In this document: in pieces, positions 3,167 to 11,275 of the stretch
How the letters are laid out: each line of letters starts with the position of its first letter
How positions within the stretch are numbered: position 1 is the first letter of the stretch
NCBI GenBank assembly: GCA_905182125.1
Contig: CAJJAV010000003.1
Location: forward strand, 62,069 to 126,068
Length of the DNA stretch: 64,000 nt
From: an uncultured Candidatus Poseidoniales archaeon
Lineage (GTDB): Archaea; Thermoplasmatota; Poseidoniia; Poseidoniales; Poseidoniaceae
Direction of reading: 5' to 3'
Position numbers and translations under genes: made by a program
The notes under the pieces: generated by a model
The model's database searches: none
The model's input: the letters and a program-made list of their open reading frames with translations, nothing else
Told to the model about the DNA's origin: nothing

Positions 3167-3817
3167 TTATTCACCGCGGAATTTGCTCAGCAGGCCATCA
3201 GGTTCGATTTCGATTGCCTTTTCTTCTTCGAACCAAGAACGATCGAGTAAACCTGTATCCATTTCTTCACGTTCACGGGCGGATTCAATGCTGTCCTCTG
3301 CTCCGTTGACCAAATCTCGAAGAGCGATTGCTTGATTCAAGATTACGACTTGCTTCTTGATGCCTTTATGCTGGAAAAGGTGAGGACTAAAATGGCCGAG
3401 GCGGGTGTAATTTTCATCGTCACGAACCAAGCAAGAACCACCGAGCAACTCGTCTTCAGCAAGACGAACTCTTCCAATGCCTAAATCAGTCCACAACCCG
3501 TCTGACATTCGAACCATAACCACGGTGTTTCCAATTGGCTCTTCGTCCATGAATGGGTGATTCATATCCACTGCTAATGGCACATGGAGCATGCTCGATG
3601 ACCTGTACAAGGACCACAGGAGAAAACCTCCCAGGATGAGTGGGAAAAAACCAAGCCAAACCACACCGGTGATGGTTGCAAGAACATAACATAAGCAGAG
3701 AACAACTGTAAGAAGTACGCCAGAAGCAGCCACAAAGCGGAGTATGAAAGGGCGTGCGAGAGGGAGCTGATTGAATCGGCGCATCCCCGATGGTAGACTT
3801 CCGACCTGCCCGACCAT
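3167..3817 (-). CDS. hypothetical membrane protein (2 N-terminal TM plus soluble domain)
   Basis: 216-aa ORF; GAGGTGG upstream of the ATG; two hydrophobic helices. Confidence 0.7.
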   Translation of the reverse strand: MVGQVGSLPSGMRRFNQLPLARPFILRFVAASGVLLTVVLCLCYVLATITGVVWLGFFPLILGGFLLWSLYRSSSMLHVPLAVDMNHPFMDEEPIGNTVVMVRMSDGLWTDLGIGRVRLAEDELLGGSCLVRDDENYTRLGHFSPHLFQHKGIKKQVVILNQAIALRDLVNGAEDSIESAREREEMDTGLLDRSWFEEEKAIEIEPDGLLSKFRGE

Positions 3818-3835: not shown

Positions 3836-4252
3836 TCAACTTTGAACTTCACGCTCACAGCGTTGCAAGTCATAGGCCGTAGCGTCCATTGACCAAACGC
3901 CTGCATCTGAGCCAAAAAGGTTCATTGCGGCAAGGTGGTCAGCGATGTTAATACCCCACACGCAAGACCAAGATGAGAGTTTGTCATTGACCTTTACGGT
4001 CAGGTTCTTGACACCACGGGTTTTTTGGCGTTCATGGTTGAGCAACAAGGCTGCTGTTTGAATCATACCCTGAACAAACAGAACCTCGGATTGAGGAGCA
4101 CCCCTCCGTTTGTGTGAATTCCACAGATCCTCCCAATCCTCATGAGCGTGCCAGTACCGTCGTGCATCGAAATCCTCGAGCCCTGCAATCCACAGATTCA
4201 ATTCCTCACCGGCAAGGGGTTCAATTTCTTCATGTGTTTCATCGCCGCCCAT
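3836..4252 (-). CDS. DUF309 family protein
   Basis: YWHAHEDWEDLW and QGMIQTAA match the DUF309 pattern HExxExxW...QGLIQxA. Confidence 0.8.
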   Translation of the reverse strand: MGGDETHEEIEPLAGEELNLWIAGLEDFDARRYWHAHEDWEDLWNSHKRRGAPQSEVLFVQGMIQTAALLLNHERQKTRGVKNLTVKVNDKLSSWSCVWGINIADHLAAMNLFGSDAGVWSMDATAYDLQRCEREVQS

Positions 4253-4356: not shown

Positions 4357-6309
4357 ATGGTCGAATTACCGCAGGGAGACGTCACGGAAATCCGCCGTGG
4401 CGACCGCGATGCCCTCCGGATTTTGTCCACCGACATGGCCAAGTTATCCACCACTGGATACATCAGGACAGAAAGGAAGCCGAAAGAGTCCATGCCACGT
4501 GTCGGGCATATTTTGTTCATTGAAGGGCGCCCAACGTTAGCCATTCACGAAAGCGAGGCCGTTCTGTTTGGACTCGAAGCATTATTGGAAATTGAGAACG
4601 ATGCACTCCCCATTGAAACCCTGCTTGCAATTCATGAATTGCCCATGCCTGATGCACAGCGTGTCTCGACCTTGCACCCAAATGCCTTCTTGCACCTCGA
4701 GACGGTTGAACCATCGACAGAAGAACACGAACGCTGGTGGTCGAATGTTCAACTCCGCCCGGGAAGTTGGAGGAGAGAAGCCCGCCTACCAGAACTCGAA
4801 GTGACGGTCGAAGCACCTGAGGCTGTGCGTCAAAGAAGCCGTGCTTATCTGCAACGCCATGAGGGGATGGAGCGTATGATTCGCCCCGGTGATGCGTTTT
4901 TACTCGATGCTCAAGATCCATCAATGCTGTTCACACTCGCAGGTCATTTAGCCAACCATGGGCGTCCAATCCTCGTCATCTCACGCCATGATGTGGATTC
5001 GCTCAGCGTTGAACATCAGTTGCCAGTCGCTGCATGCCATTGGCTTTCAACTGGAAATCACCCTCGTGCACTTGAACCGACATTGGAAAGCGTGCGAACT
5101 AAGATTGATGCCTTTCTATGGGAAAACATGCGGGCTGTCGTCCTTATCGAGGGCGTGGAATACCTTTCAGGCTTGAACGGTGATGCCCGCACGATTGATT
5201 TCCTACGGGACGTCGTGGATGGGGTCCGAATGGATGACCATGTGCTGTTGACAACTGCAGACATGAACGCCTTCGAACTGGAACCACGTCATCGGTTGAA
5301 CCGATGCCTCTCTCGGCTTCAACCAAGTGAGATTGAACACTGGCTCACCGAGCCAGAACTGATCCTCGACCATCCATTGTGCGCACCACCAACCGAAGAG
5401 GAACGCACATGGATTGAACAGCAACTTCAACGAGCAGTGGAACATTCACCAGCGCCATCAACGGCCACTTCGGAGGGCACCTCAATGACGGGTGGCCATG
5501 AAATGGCAAGTGAAGAAGACCGTTTACAAGCCACCGAAGCCCTCGGAGAACACGTCCGAGCGTGGACGGAAGAAGAACGACAAGAACCAAGTTTGCAAAC
5601 CGTTGCAGCCGAACCCCCTCAAACCGTTCTCGCTGAACAAAACGTGGATCTGACTGAACCAGCCAAACCATTCGAACACACAGTCACCGAGGTAGCCAAA
5701 GTCGTTGAGGAAGGAAGTGAAATGGTACAACAAACCGCTAAGGAACCTGTTTCCGATGCACCTCGCAAGCCTCGAGTGCCCCGTACCGCTCAACGCCTTC
5801 GGAGAAAGAAAAAGCAACCGGGACCACGGGTTGCGAACCAACACCGGATTCAAACCGCTGCTGCAGTTGCACACGCCCCGTTTGCAACACCGGCATTCCC
5901 CGAGCGAAGGCCAGTAAACAAGCCTGCTGCGATTGCTTCATCCCTCGATTCCTTCGCCGCAAGGCAACAGACAGCGATGGAAAAGACATTCCAACCCACG
6001 ACTTCATTGAAGGGTTCACTCAAAGCCGCAGCTCAACAATCCTCTGCTGGAAAGCACCATCATCTTCCTTCACTGGGAAGTGGCCCAAAACCAATTTCTG
6101 CGGTCAACAACAGGCAACCAATCGGCGCCAAAACACCATTGACGCCGTTGTTAGCACGACCCGGAATCGATTCTGATGCAAAGCCAAAACACCTGCCACG
6201 AGAAATAGCATCAAGGGAACAAGCATCCCCTGCAATGGAAGATCAGTTGAGTTCGTGGGAACTTGAAGACCTTGAACGCCTTCGGAAAGAACGGGAGGGG
6301 GAAAAGTGA
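4357..6309 (+). CDS. DUF835 (inactive KaiC/RecA-like) domain protein with a DUF2226-like N-terminus and a long disordered C-terminus
   Basis: LVISR...WLS...VVLIEGVEYLSGLNG is the DUF835 signature; N-terminal TGYIR...GHILFIEGRP resembles DUF2226; Pro/Lys/Ala-rich tail. Confidence 0.7.
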   Translation: MVELPQGDVTEIRRGDRDALRILSTDMAKLSTTGYIRTERKPKESMPRVGHILFIEGRPTLAIHESEAVLFGLEALLEIENDALPIETLLAIHELPMPDAQRVSTLHPNAFLHLETVEPSTEEHERWWSNVQLRPGSWRREARLPELEVTVEAPEAVRQRSRAYLQRHEGMERMIRPGDAFLLDAQDPSMLFTLAGHLANHGRPILVISRHDVDSLSVEHQLPVAACHWLSTGNHPRALEPTLESVRTKIDAFLWENMRAVVLIEGVEYLSGLNGDARTIDFLRDVVDGVRMDDHVLLTTADMNAFELEPRHRLNRCLSRLQPSEIEHWLTEPELILDHPLCAPPTEEERTWIEQQLQRAVEHSPAPSTATSEGTSMTGGHEMASEEDRLQATEALGEHVRAWTEEERQEPSLQTVAAEPPQTVLAEQNVDLTEPAKPFEHTVTEVAKVVEEGSEMVQQTAKEPVSDAPRKPRVPRTAQRLRRKKKQPGPRVANQHRIQTAAAVAHAPFATPAFPERRPVNKPAAIASSLDSFAARQQTAMEKTFQPTTSLKGSLKAAAQQSSAGKHHHLPSLGSGPKPISAVNNRQPIGAKTPLTPLLARPGIDSDAKPKHLPREIASREQASPAMEDQLSSWELEDLERLRKEREGEK

Positions 6310-8369
6310 GTTCACGAAAAGCAAACTTAGACCTCGCTATTGCCCAAGCAAAGCAACGGTTGTCAGATTTAGGGGCCGCAGCAAAACTGCCCGAGGAAGT
6401 CCAAGAAACCAAACAAAAAGGACTGCCGCCCAAATCCCGTTTGAACCGTTTGCTTGGAAAACAATCCGTCCCTGACACGCGAAGGGGGACGCTTTTGCAG
6501 CGTGTCGGCGTCGTTGAGCGCCCAACTTACGACTTGGTAGCCGATGCTGTTCTTGGAAAAGAAAGCAGACTGCACCAACCCTCACTCAATCTTCACACAG
6601 ACGATGGCTCCCTTGCATCGATCGTATCGAGCCGTTTGAAAAGCCTCCGTGAACGTACTGCAGAGAGCATAGAGGAACGTCAAATGCCGCTTGACAAGGA
6701 TGATTTCTTTGTCGGCATGGAAACAGATGGACGACCCGTTTGGGAAAGCGTCCTCGATCATCAGCGGGGCAGAACAATTCATGAGCTGCCCGAATCGCTG
6801 GCTCAACCGGAACCTGGGACGCTGTTCCACCACAGTGTGATGGCCCCTGTTGATGCCCCATGGCCAGTCAAACTTCGCCCGGAATCACGGTTGAGTTTCA
6901 AACAGTGGTTCACCATCGAAGAAAACCTTCAAGCGACCCAAGCCGCCGAAGCAGTGGTTGATTCTCCTGGCATGGCACTCAACCCACTGGTGCTCATTGG
7001 ACCGTCAGAAAGCGGACGTTCCCATTTGATTCATGCCATTTCACAAGGGGTGCTTCGCAGACAGGAAGGCGAAGTCTACCTCCTTGCTGCCAGCGACCTG
7101 CTCCAATTCGAACACCTCCCTCAAGGCTGGCAAGAGGCCATGTCACAGGCACGCATGATAGCGATTGATGATACCCACCTCATGGCAGACCACCCTGTTT
7201 CATCGGCCATGCTTGGGACCATGGTTGACTATGCCCTGAACATGGGTGTCCATGTCGTTCTTACAACAAGCATCGACCCCGAACGCTGGCCTGCCTCAAG
7301 GCTGTGGGAATTGGTTCGCAGCGCTGCAAAGGTCCGCCTCCACAAGCCTGCAGCAACCAGCATGGTCCTCTTCGCTCGACAACTTGCGCTCAAGCGTAGC
7401 CTGATGCTCGATGATGGCCAGTTGGCTAGCGTGGTCTTGCACCATGAAATTGGTTGGCGCGCTACGAAAGCCAACTTGGACATGGTTGCCCTCGCCCTTG
7501 AATCGGGACAGGAATTGCTCGACGGTGATGATGTCACCTCTGTGCTTTCAGGAGAACCCGTGCATTCCAATCAAGTCATGCCGCAAATCGAGCGAGAAAA
7601 CGTCGCCGACATTGCGACAAAGTTGATTTCAGAGGCAGTGGATGTCGTGTACAGCGACACCGCGATTGGCGGCATTGAACTTCACTCTCAATTGCCAGAG
7701 ATTGGCGACGACACCTACGAGCCACCTCACTTCGATACCGAATCAATGGCCAGGAATGCTCAATCACGTCATGAGGCCTACATGAAAACGGCCCTGCATG
7801 ATTTGAACCTGAAAGTTCCCTCGGTGCTGGATTTAGATGAACGCGATGCCCATTTAGTCGCACGTTCTGGACGAATCGAAGAGCGAGATTACAGCACGGC
7901 CGCAGATATTCTCACCGACCTCGATGAAACAATTGACCGAACACTTGGTTCCTTTGAGTCAGAAATCGCCTCTCGATCGATGCACTTGGAACAACTGGAG
8001 CAACGAATGATGGACTTGGCCCAGCAGACCTCCGAAGCAACCATCGAGGAATTGATTCAAATTGCAGATGATCTGCGTCACCTCGAAGAAGAGCTCGTGG
8101 AAATCGACCCTGAGCGAGGTCCTCTTCCTCCGTTCGAAGAAGATGTTATCGAGAGCAAAAAGCGAAGCGTCGGTCGGAGAAAGAATCCACCGAAGAACGA
8201 TCCAATACCCTCGGAACTTGACAGTTTCACGCCAGAGGGTGAATGGGATGTTGATGCTGGAAGCGTCGACATGCTTGACCTCCTAGACAACACGGAAAAG
8301 AGCCAAAGAAAAATCACCCTTTCGACCATCTCAGCAGTCCAATCAAAACCCGATGGTGAAGAGGAATGA
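6306..8369 (+). CDS. DnaA/Hda-like AAA+ domain protein with an acidic coiled-coil C-terminus and no DnaA domain IV
   Basis: SFKQW..EENLQATQAAEAVVDSPGMALNPLVLIGPSESGRSHLIHAI...IAIDD...VVLTT follows the DnaA domain III consensus; the GTG start overlaps the upstream TGA. Confidence 0.75.
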   Translation: MSSRKANLDLAIAQAKQRLSDLGAAAKLPEEVQETKQKGLPPKSRLNRLLGKQSVPDTRRGTLLQRVGVVERPTYDLVADAVLGKESRLHQPSLNLHTDDGSLASIVSSRLKSLRERTAESIEERQMPLDKDDFFVGMETDGRPVWESVLDHQRGRTIHELPESLAQPEPGTLFHHSVMAPVDAPWPVKLRPESRLSFKQWFTIEENLQATQAAEAVVDSPGMALNPLVLIGPSESGRSHLIHAISQGVLRRQEGEVYLLAASDLLQFEHLPQGWQEAMSQARMIAIDDTHLMADHPVSSAMLGTMVDYALNMGVHVVLTTSIDPERWPASRLWELVRSAAKVRLHKPAATSMVLFARQLALKRSLMLDDGQLASVVLHHEIGWRATKANLDMVALALESGQELLDGDDVTSVLSGEPVHSNQVMPQIERENVADIATKLISEAVDVVYSDTAIGGIELHSQLPEIGDDTYEPPHFDTESMARNAQSRHEAYMKTALHDLNLKVPSVLDLDERDAHLVARSGRIEERDYSTAADILTDLDETIDRTLGSFESEIASRSMHLEQLEQRMMDLAQQTSEATIEELIQIADDLRHLEEELVEIDPERGPLPPFEEDVIESKKRSVGRRKNPPKNDPIPSELDSFTPEGEWDVDAGSVDMLDLLDNTEKSQRKITLSTISAVQSKPDGEEE

Positions 8370-8836
8370 AAGGCGGATGGTGGATGGGCGGTGTCCCGTT
8401 TAGTTGCCAGCCAAACTGTGGAAGGTGTTGTGACGAGCCGGGTGGTATTGTTTACCTTTCAACCACGGATGCTGAACGCATCTCTGCTCACCACGAGTTG
8501 GAAGTTGATGTATGGCTTGAACGCGATTGCCGTCAAACGCTGGATGGACGGTATGTCCTCAAAAGTCGAGAAAGCGATGAGGTCTGTATTTTCCTTGATG
8601 GCGAAAAGCGATGTTCAATTTATGAAGTGAGACCCCAGCAATGTGCTGCTTTCCCTTGGTGGTCTGAGAATTTGGCAACCGAACGAGCTTGGAAGGAAGT
8701 CAAGGAGACATGCCCCGGGGTTACGGCCGAGGATGCAATTGTGGTCGAAGGTGAAACCATCAGAATACATGTCTTCGCTGATCGTGAATCTTCGAAGGGT
8801 TTCCGTACATGGCCGCCAGAGAATCGCCGAAAATGA
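8366..8836 (+). CDS. YkgJ/UPF0153 cysteine-cluster (Zn/Fe-S) protein
   Basis: CQPNCGRCC, CIFL, CSIYEVRPQQCAAFPWW and CPG motifs; ATGA overlap with the upstream gene. Confidence 0.85.
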   Translation: MKGGWWMGGVPFSCQPNCGRCCDEPGGIVYLSTTDAERISAHHELEVDVWLERDCRQTLDGRYVLKSRESDEVCIFLDGEKRCSIYEVRPQQCAAFPWWSENLATERAWKEVKETCPGVTAEDAIVVEGETIRIHVFADRESSKGFRTWPPENRRK

Positions 8837-8950
8837 ACATTTCGAAAGGAAGCCTAGGTATCCTGCACTACACCTATTCGGGGCACCGCGTAAGGTGAAG
8901 CAACCGCCTTTATACGAGGGGCCTTGGTGGATGAACATAATGGGGTTGAA

Positions 8951-10117
8951 ATGAGCGATAAAGAAGTCTTGCTAAAGGTGACATCAGACCACCTTAACAC
9001 CGGTTTGCGAGGAGTCCCCGTGGGCACCTGTCGAACCTCATTTGTAACTCCGACAGAAGGCGTTCATTATTGCGGTTATCCAATCACTGAATTGGCCTCT
9101 TTTGCCCCCGAGGACATCATTTATCTTTTGTTCAATAAAGAACTACCAAACGCCCAGCAATCCGAAGAAATCCGTGCTGAACTATCGTCTCGGGCAACAA
9201 TCCCTGGCGACATCGAAACGGTCCTCAAGACCCTCCCCCCGAACGGCCACCCAATGGATTGGCTCAGCGTAGGCATCCACACGCTGGGTATGCTGGAAAC
9301 AACGAATGATTGGCGAGCAGATGCCATGAACCTCATTGCTCGCATGCCTCGACTAATGGGTCTCATCTTCCGAATCCGAGATGGACGCGACCAGAATATT
9401 CCTGCAGATGATCCATCTGCAACGCTTGTCGATCGATTTGTCAATGCCCTCGATCTCAAGGACGTGGACAAGGCCAAAATGACCCGTGTGATTTCCACCT
9501 ACCTTGTGCTTCACATGGACCACGGCGGCGGAAATCTTTCCACCTTCACAGGAAAGGCGATTGCATCAGGCCAAGCAACGGTCTATTCAGCCATGGCTGG
9601 TGCTATGAATGCCCTCTCTGGCCCTCTGCACGGCCGAGCAAACCAATCTTGCCTCGAATTCGTTCTCCGAGTTGGAACCAGTGACCCTCAGGAAGTTGAG
9701 GACTTTGTTCGAGCAGAATTGGATGCAAAGCGACCTGTCTTCGGCTTTGGACATGCAGTCCTACGAACCGAAGACCCTCGTGCAACTGTACAATTTGCAT
9801 TGGGACAGGAGATCTGCCCAGATGATGAAAATTTCAAGATCATCCGCACCCTCCGTGAAGTGGCTCCTCGTGTCCTTGCAGAAAATCCTAAGATCAGCAA
9901 TCCAAATGCCAACGTCGATATCGCAAGTGGAGCGCTGTTGCACCATATTGGTTTGACAGACCCAACCTACTACACCACTTTCTTTGGTTGGGCACGAGTC
10001 GCCGGAATCGGTGCTCAAATCGTTGATGAGCGAAGCGTGATGCGAGACGGTAAAGGCACACCAATCTACCGTCCAAAGTACATTGCTGAACAACAATCCT
10101 TACGTCACGTTGAGTGA
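8951..10117 (+). CDS. gltA: citrate synthase
   Basis: GLRGV, HMDHGGGNLST, LSGPLHGRAN, GFGHAV.R..DPR and NVD motifs; TTTATA element at about 8908. Confidence 0.9.
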   Translation: MSDKEVLLKVTSDHLNTGLRGVPVGTCRTSFVTPTEGVHYCGYPITELASFAPEDIIYLLFNKELPNAQQSEEIRAELSSRATIPGDIETVLKTLPPNGHPMDWLSVGIHTLGMLETTNDWRADAMNLIARMPRLMGLIFRIRDGRDQNIPADDPSATLVDRFVNALDLKDVDKAKMTRVISTYLVLHMDHGGGNLSTFTGKAIASGQATVYSAMAGAMNALSGPLHGRANQSCLEFVLRVGTSDPQEVEDFVRAELDAKRPVFGFGHAVLRTEDPRATVQFALGQEICPDDENFKIIRTLREVAPRVLAENPKISNPNANVDIASGALLHHIGLTDPTYYTTFFGWARVAGIGAQIVDERSVMRDGKGTPIYRPKYIAEQQSLRHVE

Positions 10118-10120
10118 TGT

Positions 10121-11275
10121 TCAAGGGAACACTGGGCGCGAGGTTTTACCCGAGCCACGGTGACCAATCAATCGAACAGCTTGCCATGGCGGACTTGAGG
10201 CATCCTTGAGTGCCGGGTTGAACGCAGGACGAGCCACTTCCCGCCACGACCAGCGCTTTGACCACATGGACATCAATTCAGTCCTTCGCGCTGCGTCGCA
10301 TTCAATCCACGGTGTTACATCAGATTTTAATTCAGCCAGAACATCAAGGTGATTTTCCTCAGTGGCTCCGTTCAGAAGTTCTGATTGCTTTGCATCCATT
10401 GGAAGGGTCGCAGGTCGCGTCCAACGGGCGTGGCCAGAAGGAAGCCAAGTGAAATTCGGATCGGCATGATCGGTTAATCCGGTGAGGCCTGCTGCAAGCA
10501 ATTTATGTTCGATATCGGCCCTCGTAGGCCATACATAGACTGGAAAACCACCTTGTGCCATTTTGAGATGCTCCGCACCTTTTTCGCTCAACCCGACCTT
10601 TTTGCCAAGCGGTAGTTTGTTCATAGGGGGGACAAAATATTCGATGGCGCAAGGGATCATCGATGCTCCAGAAGAACGATGTCGCTCAACCAATCGAGCG
10701 AAGGAGTGCGTGACAAATTGAGGCAGGGCTCTGAGACGTTTGGTCTGTCGGTTTCCAAAAGGGGGAATATAGGGCAACAATTCAGCCCACGGGCGCGAAG
10801 TCGACGAGGCTTCAATCGAGGGACGCATACCGGTGTGAAAGGCATAGTAAACGCTGTTTTCTTTTGGCACCTCGAATTCATTGAGCAAAACATCTGCAGC
10901 ATCAATCAATTCAGTGACATGACGCTTATGGGCATGCCTTCCAAAAAAACCACCACCCTTGTCCGCCTTTGGGTGAGGTCGTTTCAATTCCACACAACCC
11001 ATCTTGCCGTGGTCTCGCCATTGTTCCAAGACCACGGAATCTTCCAGCAAGGAGCGAAACGAGCAGAAACCAAATGATTCAAGTTCATCGAGCGTGTAAT
11101 TTTCAACCCAAGGCTTCGGGGAGGTAAGTCGCTCTTTCGCGATGGAAACATCTTCATCATGATGGATGATCACCTCACCATCCTTTGTCAATCGAAGGTC
11201 AAATTCAATACCATCGTGGAATTGAATCGCGTGCCTCAAACTTTCGAGGGTGTTTTCGGGGGCTTGTTGCCACAT
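10121..11275 (-). CDS. glycerophosphodiester phosphodiesterase (GDPD), apparently circularly permuted
   Basis: APENTLES, GIEFDLRLTKDG..IIHHD and VELK lie near the N-terminus; the LIGHRG motif is at the extreme C-terminus. Confidence 0.8.
   Translation of the reverse strand: MWQQAPENTLESLRHAIQFHDGIEFDLRLTKDGEVIIHHDEDVSIAKERLTSPKPWVENYTLDELESFGFCSFRSLLEDSVVLEQWRDHGKMGCVELKRPHPKADKGGGFFGRHAHKRHVTELIDAADVLLNEFEVPKENSVYYAFHTGMRPSIEASSTSRPWAELLPYIPPFGNRQTKRLRALPQFVTHSFARLVERHRSSGASMIPCAIEYFVPPMNKLPLGKKVGLSEKGAEHLKMAQGGFPVYVWPTRADIEHKLLAAGLTGLTDHADPNFTWLPSGHARWTRPATLPMDAKQSELLNGATEENHLDVLAELKSDVTPWIECDAARRTELMSMWSKRWSWREVARPAFNPALKDASSPPWQAVRLIGHRGSGKTSRPVFP

Follow-up and report, generated by a model that had tools for sequence, protein, structure and literature searches.

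The window analysed here is a stretch of 64,000 nucleotides from an uncultured Candidatus Poseidoniales archaeon (assembly GCA_905182125.1, contig CAJJAV010000003.1, positions 62,069 to 126,068 of the forward strand), and its subject is a run of three plus-strand genes, assigned from the list of open reading frames (ORFs) and Pfam. The first, gene A (4357..6309), encodes a 650-residue protein with an N-terminal domain (N-domain), a DUF835 domain (i.e., an inactive KaiC-like domain) and a long disordered tail. The second, gene B (6306..8369), encodes a 687-residue AAA+ protein of the type of DnaA domain III, without domains I and IV, and the third, gene C (8366..8836), a 156-residue cysteine-cluster protein of the CxxCxxCC (YkgJ) family, whose membership of the module is uncertain. 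A first-pass annotation of this DNA had described three genes joined by GTGA and ATGA overlaps, and the ORF coordinates and junction sequences bear this out: A and B share four bases (GTGA, 6306-6309), as do B and C (ATGA, 8366-8369). That these are real genes and not chance ORFs is shown by intact homologues (25-93% identity), present in 77 of 121 Poseidoniales genomes. RNA contigs of 150-215 bases from two marine metatranscriptome runs of one study were 100% identical to pieces of all three genes (DNA carry-over being possible in such libraries).

Gene B matches the Pfam family Bac_DnaA (PF00308) over residues 195-326 (E 6.9e-8, 33.3 bits, cut-off 23). Such a match is in itself insufficient to call a DnaA-clade protein in an archaeon, since six-frame genome searches with PF00308 also scored above the cut-off in three archaeal controls, M. 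jannaschii, H. volcanii and M. acetivorans; the clade assignment of B therefore rests on a profile search of the Protein Data Bank (PDB) and on Foldseek. Searched as a single sequence against solved structures, B gave marginal matches (Hda E 0.016, DnaA E 0.018). A profile made from 19 members of the B family, with the alignment cut to the AAA+ region only, matched the DnaA proteins of B. subtilis (8btg, E 1.5e-26), T. maritima (2z4r, 1.1e-25) and A. aeolicus (1.6e-15), followed by Hda (4.6e-8), DnaC (2.5e-5) and other AAA+ proteins at 5e-4 or weaker, and the match to DnaA spanned both base and lid. Foldseek with the B model agreed: its best match was to DnaA domain III (8bv3_A, E 5.3e-13, target TM 0.82), with Hda ranked behind it. 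The first-pass annotation had traced DnaA domain III through the middle protein motif by motif and had proposed a comparison with other AAA+ clades; the motifs are indeed found in B where it had placed them, and profile and Foldseek both favour DnaA domain III. B is thus a true DnaA-clade AAA+ fold, comprising base and lid, and not a member of another AAA+ clade.

The AAA+ core with its lid occupies residues ~190-420 (6873..7565, plus strand; pLDDT ~85-94). It carries the P-loop GPSESGRSH (6999..7025, plus strand; residues 232-240), in which Arg238 stands at the position of the Walker A lysine, the Walker B motif IAIDD (residues 285-289), the box-VII-like ASRLWEL (residues 330-336) and the sensor-II-like GWR (residues 383-385). 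Against the NCBIfam models B scored 40.1 bits for DnaA (TIGR00362, cut-off 343.9) and 42.8 bits for Hda (TIGR03420, cut-off 194.8), far under both cut-offs, which makes it related to both without being an equivalog of either. An exhaustive library search with the AAA+ alignment of the B family retrieved 17,541 proteins (E up to 1e-3). The Poseidoniales family ranked highest, followed by proteins that contain two Bac_DnaA domains (and whose scores are sums over both) and then by ordinary DnaA at ~120-127 bits for one domain; no family closer than DnaA itself was found in this search. Among the bacterial proteins, Gemmatimonadota encode ~650-residue forms with two complete Bac_DnaA domains (P0102-P0192, P0271-P0339).

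That the middle protein would have no helix-turn-helix domain IV, as the first reading had it, was confirmed both by Pfam, where Bac_DnaA_C gave no match to B at E up to 0.1, and by the AlphaFold2 model, which after residue 420 consists of a two-helix hairpin and disorder. The domain I family, DnaA_N, gave no match to B either. The full-length model has a mean pLDDT of 68.9, is mostly disordered outside core and hairpin, and is mostly of low confidence or disordered over residues 1-185. The hairpin, which is followed by an acidic tail, covers residues 528-600 (7887..8105, plus strand), with helices at 528-575 and 580-600 modelled at pLDDT 84-89; in the family alignment A578 and D588 are invariant and L561, L583 and L597 nearly so. 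Residues 425-687 carry a net charge of -36.

The arginine in place of the Walker A lysine, pointed out by the first-pass annotation, is present in the window's B and does not hold as a family trait. Among 113 family representatives, which are related to each other and not independent, this column reads R in 62, K in 41, C in 6, T in 2, M in 1 and G in 1. K is found in most loci of families f2 and f3 and in some of f1, most loci on the Thalassarchaeaceae side included, so the arginine is a lineage-specific change. Each Walker B aspartate is kept in 108 of the 113 representatives, the box VII arginine in 94 and the sensor II arginine in 89. Arginine occupies the same site in the Hda proteins of E. 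coli (GAGRSH) and Shewanella (SGRTH) as in the window's B (SGRSH); as it is the normal state in Hda, it is no proof of lost nucleotide binding in B. Despite R238, the window's B keeps the Walker B DD, sensor I, the box VII arginine and the sensor II arginine, and because all these other ATPase motifs are kept, B is a likely nucleotide binder. By analogy with Hda, B of the window's genus probably binds nucleotide and hydrolyses it slowly or not at all.

Gene A matches Pfam DUF835 (PF05763) over residues 197-316 (E 2.6e-12, 47.1 bits, cut-off 33.1), and an AlphaFold2 model of its residues 1-350 (mean pLDDT 82.4) contains two domains. The DUF835 domain (residues ~175-340, or ~171-335 going by the model; 4879..5376, plus strand) has a RecA/KaiC fold without a Walker A motif: in VIA-align it matched FlaH/ArlH best (4yds, Z 13.4, rmsd 3.3 over 152 residues; 4wia, Z 13.1), followed by PH0284 (Z 12.8) and KaiC (Z 12.0), and the ORF translation holds no GxxxxGK[ST] in residues 170-345. 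FlaH was also on top in Foldseek; in both searches, made with the whole model, the results were filled by matches to the DUF835 domain. The description of this protein as a degenerate P-loop module of the KaiC/RecA kind was therefore right, and it fits the label 'DUF835 (iKaiC)' that the family carries in a table of PMC5847659. A short DUF835 paralogue (~300 residues), only remotely similar to the domain of A, is encoded in most Poseidoniales genomes (e.g., G000:C27:80174-80446 in the window's own genome, G000).

The N-domain of A (residues 1-110; 4357..4686, plus strand) is an alpha/beta domain with the conserved pattern ELPxG...E.RRGG, modelled at pLDDT 74 for its first ten residues and at 87-93 for residues 11-110, and its G7, R13 and G15 are invariant in 37 sequences. 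The window's own N-domain gave no Pfam match at E up to 10. Those of two fused homologues from other Thermoplasmatota gave slight ones, L064 to DUF2226 just above the cut-off (22.7 bits, cut-off 22) and L068 weakly to DUF2226 (E 0.007) and DUF4388 (E 0.14), and in a protein atlas the domain of A fell near the DUF2226 and PatA_N clusters (language-model scores of 0.78-0.85). Of 151 Thermoplasmatota genomes searched, not one had a DUF2226 match at E 1e-5. Kinship with DUF2226 or PatA_N (DUF4388) is accordingly a lead only, insufficient for membership. The tail (residues 345-650; 5390..6306, plus strand) is of low complexity, probably disordered, and first acidic (net charge -18 over residues 345-470) and then basic (+16 over residues 470-650); a basic patch, RTAQRLRRKKK (5782-5814), and a C-terminal motif align across the order.

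The two genes travel together. B was found in 77 of the 121 Poseidoniales genomes, one copy per genome, with 59 of 59 genomes in family f1, 2 of 2 in f2 and 15 of 59 in f3, and in 13 of 21 genera. No match came from the Thalassarchaeaceae genera with small genomes; genomes of B-negative genera measure 1.3-1.6 Mb vs 1.6-2.2 Mb in B-positive ones. A, searched by its first 345 residues, occurs in the same 13 of 21 genera and likewise in 77 of the 121 genomes, and one extra genome (G061) had a short, paralogue-type match only. In all 30 loci compared, A precedes B, adjacent and on the same strand, with an in-frame NTGA overlap in 23 (in 9 of 16 outside the window's genus) and gaps of 4-46 bases in the others, and the surrounding genes stay the same in three families of the order. 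From this arrangement, A and B are usually translationally coupled and are inherited and lost together.

Outside Poseidoniales, the same parts are found in one protein. A search with the B profile detected DnaA-like AAA+ genes in 94 of 301 Thermoplasmatota genomes, and one other family (f19) had a DnaA-like match in 23 of its 24 genomes. Pfam placed Bac_DnaA and DUF835 within single ORFs at four loci (L061, L063, L064 and L065), and when one such fused protein was used as a query, both families were present in 61 of the best 120 matches listed, under names such as 'DnaA ATPase domain-containing protein', 'DnaA/Hda family protein' and 'DUF835 domain-containing protein', from Thermoplasmata, Ca. 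Saliniplasma and others. Both Pfam families were present in 46 of 46 aligned fused members. These proteins are ~540-780 residues long, with an intact ATPase site and a consensus that is near-canonical for DnaA (GLGKTHL, LLLDD, TSDRPP, RLVSRF, NVRELEGAL). A hidden Markov model (HMM) of the N-domain of A matched the N-termini of the fused proteins (50 matches, best E 7.2e-20) and one of its DUF835 domain their C-termini (best E 1.5e-32), giving the fused order N-domain, DnaA-type AAA+, DUF835; the B profile matched their AAA+ domains. In the window, the first and third modules are in A, and the second is in B, encoded downstream. The pairing of A with B made in the first reading is thus upheld by a single polypeptide in relatives as well as by adjacency in every locus. 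Going by domain content, A and B together represent, split over two genes, a family of fused proteins with a wide distribution in Thermoplasmatota.

Of 35 Thermoplasmatota loci picked by hand, 34 had a detected DnaA-like gene. In 16 of these 34 the ORF of that gene also encodes the N-domain and in 10 it also encodes DUF835, which at 2 further loci lies in an adjoining ORF; a KaiC-like ORF lies nearby at 3. Variant architectures include proteins of ~1250-1420 residues that combine N-domain, AAA+ and zinc ribbon, and another split (L157), in which an AAA+ gene is followed by a DUF835 gene. A contig scan with the fused-family alignment was dominated by bacterial DnaA, and ~4 of its 80 loci were archaeal fused genes. 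Other arrangements were seen at single loci. An operon at L066:4019-7521 (minus strand) encodes a DnaA-like AAA+ protein (534 residues), KaiC (233 residues) and a HisKA_7TM-DUF835 protein (394 residues), and L166:6447-13489 (minus strand) holds two adjacent giant genes (1004 and 1335 residues), both with the N-domain first and only the second with AAA+. DnaA-like proteins of ~415-438 residues with no Bac_DnaA_C match are encoded at L057:5077-6321, L058:5629-6876 and L059:5557-6873 (f19) and at L067:5587-6828 (f11), those of L057 and L058 being flanked by an FMN-dehydrogenase-like gene and an RDD gene. At L063:2739-5360 (minus strand), the fused DnaA-DUF835 gene has two genes for Ras-family small GTPases directly downstream, and a GNAT acetyltransferase gene abuts the fused gene in both L063 and L061.

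Several further genes surround the pair. A DUF309 gene (3836-4252, minus strand) separates A from the divergently oriented gene of a 216-residue membrane protein of no family (p216; 3167..3817, minus strand), and C is followed by a citrate synthase gene (8924-10117) and a GDPD-family gene (10121-11275, minus strand). p216 is a possible fourth partner: it was found in 74 of the 121 genomes, all of them B-positive, and has the same genus pattern as A, B and C. The complete genome G027 keeps the GDPD, citrate synthase, DUF309 and TM204 genes and is missing A-B-C between citrate synthase and DUF309 and p216 between DUF309 and TM204. As A-B-C is missing there as one contiguous block, its joint loss may be a single deletion; the p216 gap is separate from it, which makes p216 a candidate partner. 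p216 and C are always beside the pair, with a link to A-B that is weaker than the link between A and B.

Taken together, these results make it likely that A and B form a heteromeric, nucleotide-gated assembly, adaptor or signalling module, in the split form of the fused family. The two proteins would associate as a heteromer, which takes the place of the covalent linkage in the fused proteins, with the conserved C-terminal hairpin and acidic tail of B and the basic tail of A as candidate contacts. The AAA+ core would act as a nucleotide-gated switch of self-assembly, as it does in DnaA and Hda, and a partner machine would dock on surfaces offered by the N-domain and the dead KaiC-like plate.

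Several points weigh against this interpretation. The predicted binding of A to B draws on the fusion in relatives and on genomic linkage; a complex prediction for A(1-350) with B(95-480) scored 0.00 (mark 0.32) and is counted neither way. With respect to co-transcription, none of the RNA contigs spans either gene junction, and parts of each gene are also uncovered. In a quick maximum-likelihood tree of the AAA+ domains, the Poseidoniales clade is monophyletic (SH-aLRT 98) on a stem of 0.96 and its position is unresolved; the fused clade (25 of 28 members) has a support of 95, E. coli Hda falls inside DnaA, and branches are long. As this tree does not make the Poseidoniales and fused proteins sisters, the case for a fused ancestor is based on the N-domain and DUF835 domain that they have in common. 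The event may have been a fission or a fusion. Finally, the box VII arginine is missing in 19 of the 113 representatives and the sensor II arginine in 24, and the Walker A position is C, T, M or G in 10; the ATPase site may therefore be wholly dead in parts of the family, in which case a pure scaffold would fit better than a switch.

The leading candidate for a specific role is the control of a type IV filament motor, which is a narrower version of the nucleotide-gated module just described; we regard it as a lead and not a result, with the odds clearly against it. Here the contact with a hexameric ATPase of the TadA/PilB type would be made by the dead KaiC-like domain, in the way that ArlH (FlaH) docks on ArlI, the N-domain would act like PATAN, and the DnaA-like AAA+ domain would gate the contact. 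Several findings point in this direction. In one Thermoplasmatota genome (L062:2178-10434, plus strand), an 813-residue assembly ATPase consists of an N-terminal DnaA-type AAA+ domain fused to T2SSE, and its operon also holds two T2SSF genes and the genes of a DUF7289 protein and an archaeal pilin; bacterial proteins of ~1900 residues combine MshEN (a pilus-ATPase N-domain) with two Bac_DnaA domains (P0116, P0124). FlaH/ArlH is the best structural match of A's DUF835 domain, and the N-domain has its weak matches to DUF2226 and PatA_N/DUF4388; PATAN binds PilB1 and PilC in Synechocystis, according to a preprint (bioRxiv 10.1101/2021.06.11.447907). Moreover, among the matches listed, a T2SSE ATPase of ~415 residues, which in the window's genome belongs to a Tad-like locus, is encoded in 77 of 77 B-positive genomes vs 1 of 44 B-negative ones (by genus, 13 of 13 vs 1 of 8).

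This co-occurrence is to be read with care, since the B-negative genera are streamlined (1.3-1.6 Mb) and many unrelated genes must share the pattern, and since related genomes are not independent in such counts. A T2SSE gene lies within ~10 kb of only 1 of the 34 hand-picked DnaA-like loci, archaellum distribution does not co-vary with the module, and the family assignment of the N-domain is not established. The window's own genome does encode a Tad/Epd-like pilus locus (G000:C17, i.e., L071:972-6687), with the gene of this T2SSE ATPase (417 residues; L071:5434-6684) and two T2SSF genes. The same locus contains three unannotated ORFs (601, 309 and 125 residues) and is adjoined on the other strand by the gene of a 630-residue SAP-domain protein; at L062, a response-regulator gene is encoded divergently from the pilus operon. 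A link to the archaellum was rejected, as genera g9, g10 and g18 have B without archaellin and g16, g19 and g21 archaellin without B. Of the first-pass suggestion of a role in cell cycle or polarity, polarity stands as a lead only, by way of these type IV pilus hints. In the most elaborate version, and a slightly less probable one still, Thermoplasmatota would have rebuilt the DnaA core into a control unit of type IV filament motors by pairing it with an inactive ArlH-like plate and a docking domain of PATAN type, a unit which in Marine Group II is split into two coupled proteins that gate a Tad-like pilus together with a small membrane protein and the cysteine-cluster protein.

A nucleotide- or redox-sensing scaffold with C as its obligate third subunit, close to what the first-pass annotation had proposed, is improbable. 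C is a sound member of the Pfam family CxxCxxCC (PF03692; E 9.4e-12, 45.9 bits, cut-off 23), is present in 77 of the 121 genomes with a genus pattern identical to that of B, and adjoins the pair in 30 of 30 loci, in 23 of them on the same strand (22 with the four-base overlap with B). In the other 7 loci, however, it lies on the opposite strand, and none of 18 annotated neighbours of fused or long DnaA-like genes matched CxxCxxCC, so that a redox-sensing trio is not supported; the shared loss of C, moreover, may be one event, given the single missing block in G027.

Less likely still is a regulator of replication or the cell cycle, i.e., an Hda-like factor whose target would be Orc1/Cdc6, PCNA or the origin. 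The homology to DnaA and Hda and the Hda-like arginine in the P-loop speak for such a role, as do two fused homologues near a PolD large-subunit gene or a gyrB gene, although the latter are only 2 of the 34 loci, the score of B under the Hda model is far below its cut-off, and B has no DNA-binding domain. In the window's own genome, Orc1/Cdc6 was detected on another contig at 424.9 bits and archaellins are encoded as well, which identifies the host as an archaeon; three relatives also have Orc1/Cdc6, with scores of 380-425 bits over the four genomes. B is not near orc1/cdc6, the best copy in the complete genome G003 being 308 kb away, and a PF00308 search of the own genome (82% complete) and of G003 returned B itself as the sole match and no DnaA. 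B was not found in 44 of the 121 genomes; four of these were also searched for Orc1/Cdc6, and G027 and G023 (complete or near-complete) keep Orc1/Cdc6 and have no Bac_DnaA match. The module is not a replication initiator: Orc1/Cdc6 is encoded elsewhere and is retained in genomes from which the module is gone. Nothing found in this analysis points to the cell cycle.

An anti-virus defence system or mobile-element cargo can practically be dismissed: AAA+ and KaiC-like ATPases do occur in some defence systems, but PADLOC gave P-loop-level matches only (E 0.002 or weaker), and the fixed neighbourhood across three families and the single copy per genome speak against it.

No description of the module was found in the literature searched, a scope outside which the 2017 mBio paper on KaiC-like ATPases lies, and PMC12448462 mentions neither DnaA nor DUF835. 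What is new here is the domain-by-domain match that makes A and B the split form of a fused protein, the exact gaps in a streamlined genome, the proposal of p216 as a partner, a case against the archaellum that led to its rejection, and the counting of the pilus link for and against. The DnaA AAA+ core, usually a marker of bacterial replication initiation, serves in these archaea as a conserved component outside replication. It is tied, by fusion or by gene coupling, to a KaiC-like domain that is inactive, and other lineages combine it with parts of pilus motors, which bears on the reuse of AAA+ initiator modules in evolution. It also bears on annotation, as 'chromosomal replication initiator protein DnaA' is the name that databases give to such genes. 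Having both a split and a fused form amounts to a natural experiment, and the fused, motif-intact homologues are tractable for biochemistry. Poseidoniales are among the most abundant planktonic archaea and, to our knowledge, have no cultured member, so that conserved modules of unknown function such as this one are the main route to their cell biology.

Among known systems, domain III of bacterial DnaA (PDB 8bv3/8btg, 2z4r, 1l8q) shares with B the AAA+ base and lid and the order of motifs. Unlike DnaA, B has neither domain I nor domain IV, its Walker A lysine is replaced by arginine (SGRS, with no canonical GxxGxGK[ST]), and its host is an archaeon with Orc1/Cdc6; in the profile alignment, its stretch from strand 2 to Walker B is ~6 residues shorter than that of B. 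subtilis DnaA. Hda is likewise a domain-III-only relative of DnaA with arginine at the Walker A lysine, and offers a precedent for a DnaA-like module that serves as a nucleotide-bound adaptor and not as an initiator. Hda measures ~230-250 residues and acts on DnaA together with the sliding clamp, whereas B has 687 residues, lives in a genome without a DnaA match and belongs to a family whose profile fits DnaA far better.

The DUF835 domain of A shares the FlaH/KaiC fold with ArlH/FlaH of the archaellum motor, which, according to titles cited in PMC12448462, is a single-domain KaiC-like protein that binds the hexameric T2SSE ATPase in a nucleotide-dependent manner; unlike ArlH/FlaH, it has no P-loop, and the module does not follow archaellum distribution. 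With the PatA-type PATAN proteins (DUF4388) that regulate type IV pili, A has in common a small N-terminal alpha/beta output domain joined to a signalling module, a likeness in which kinship is again only a lead. The closest counterpart is the fused Thermoplasmatota family, which has the same three modules as the window's pair and to which both domains of A are specifically related. There the modules form one polypeptide, whereas in the window they are divided between two (650 and 687 residues) with extra disordered tails, and B has a C-terminal hairpin and an ATPase site that is drifting.

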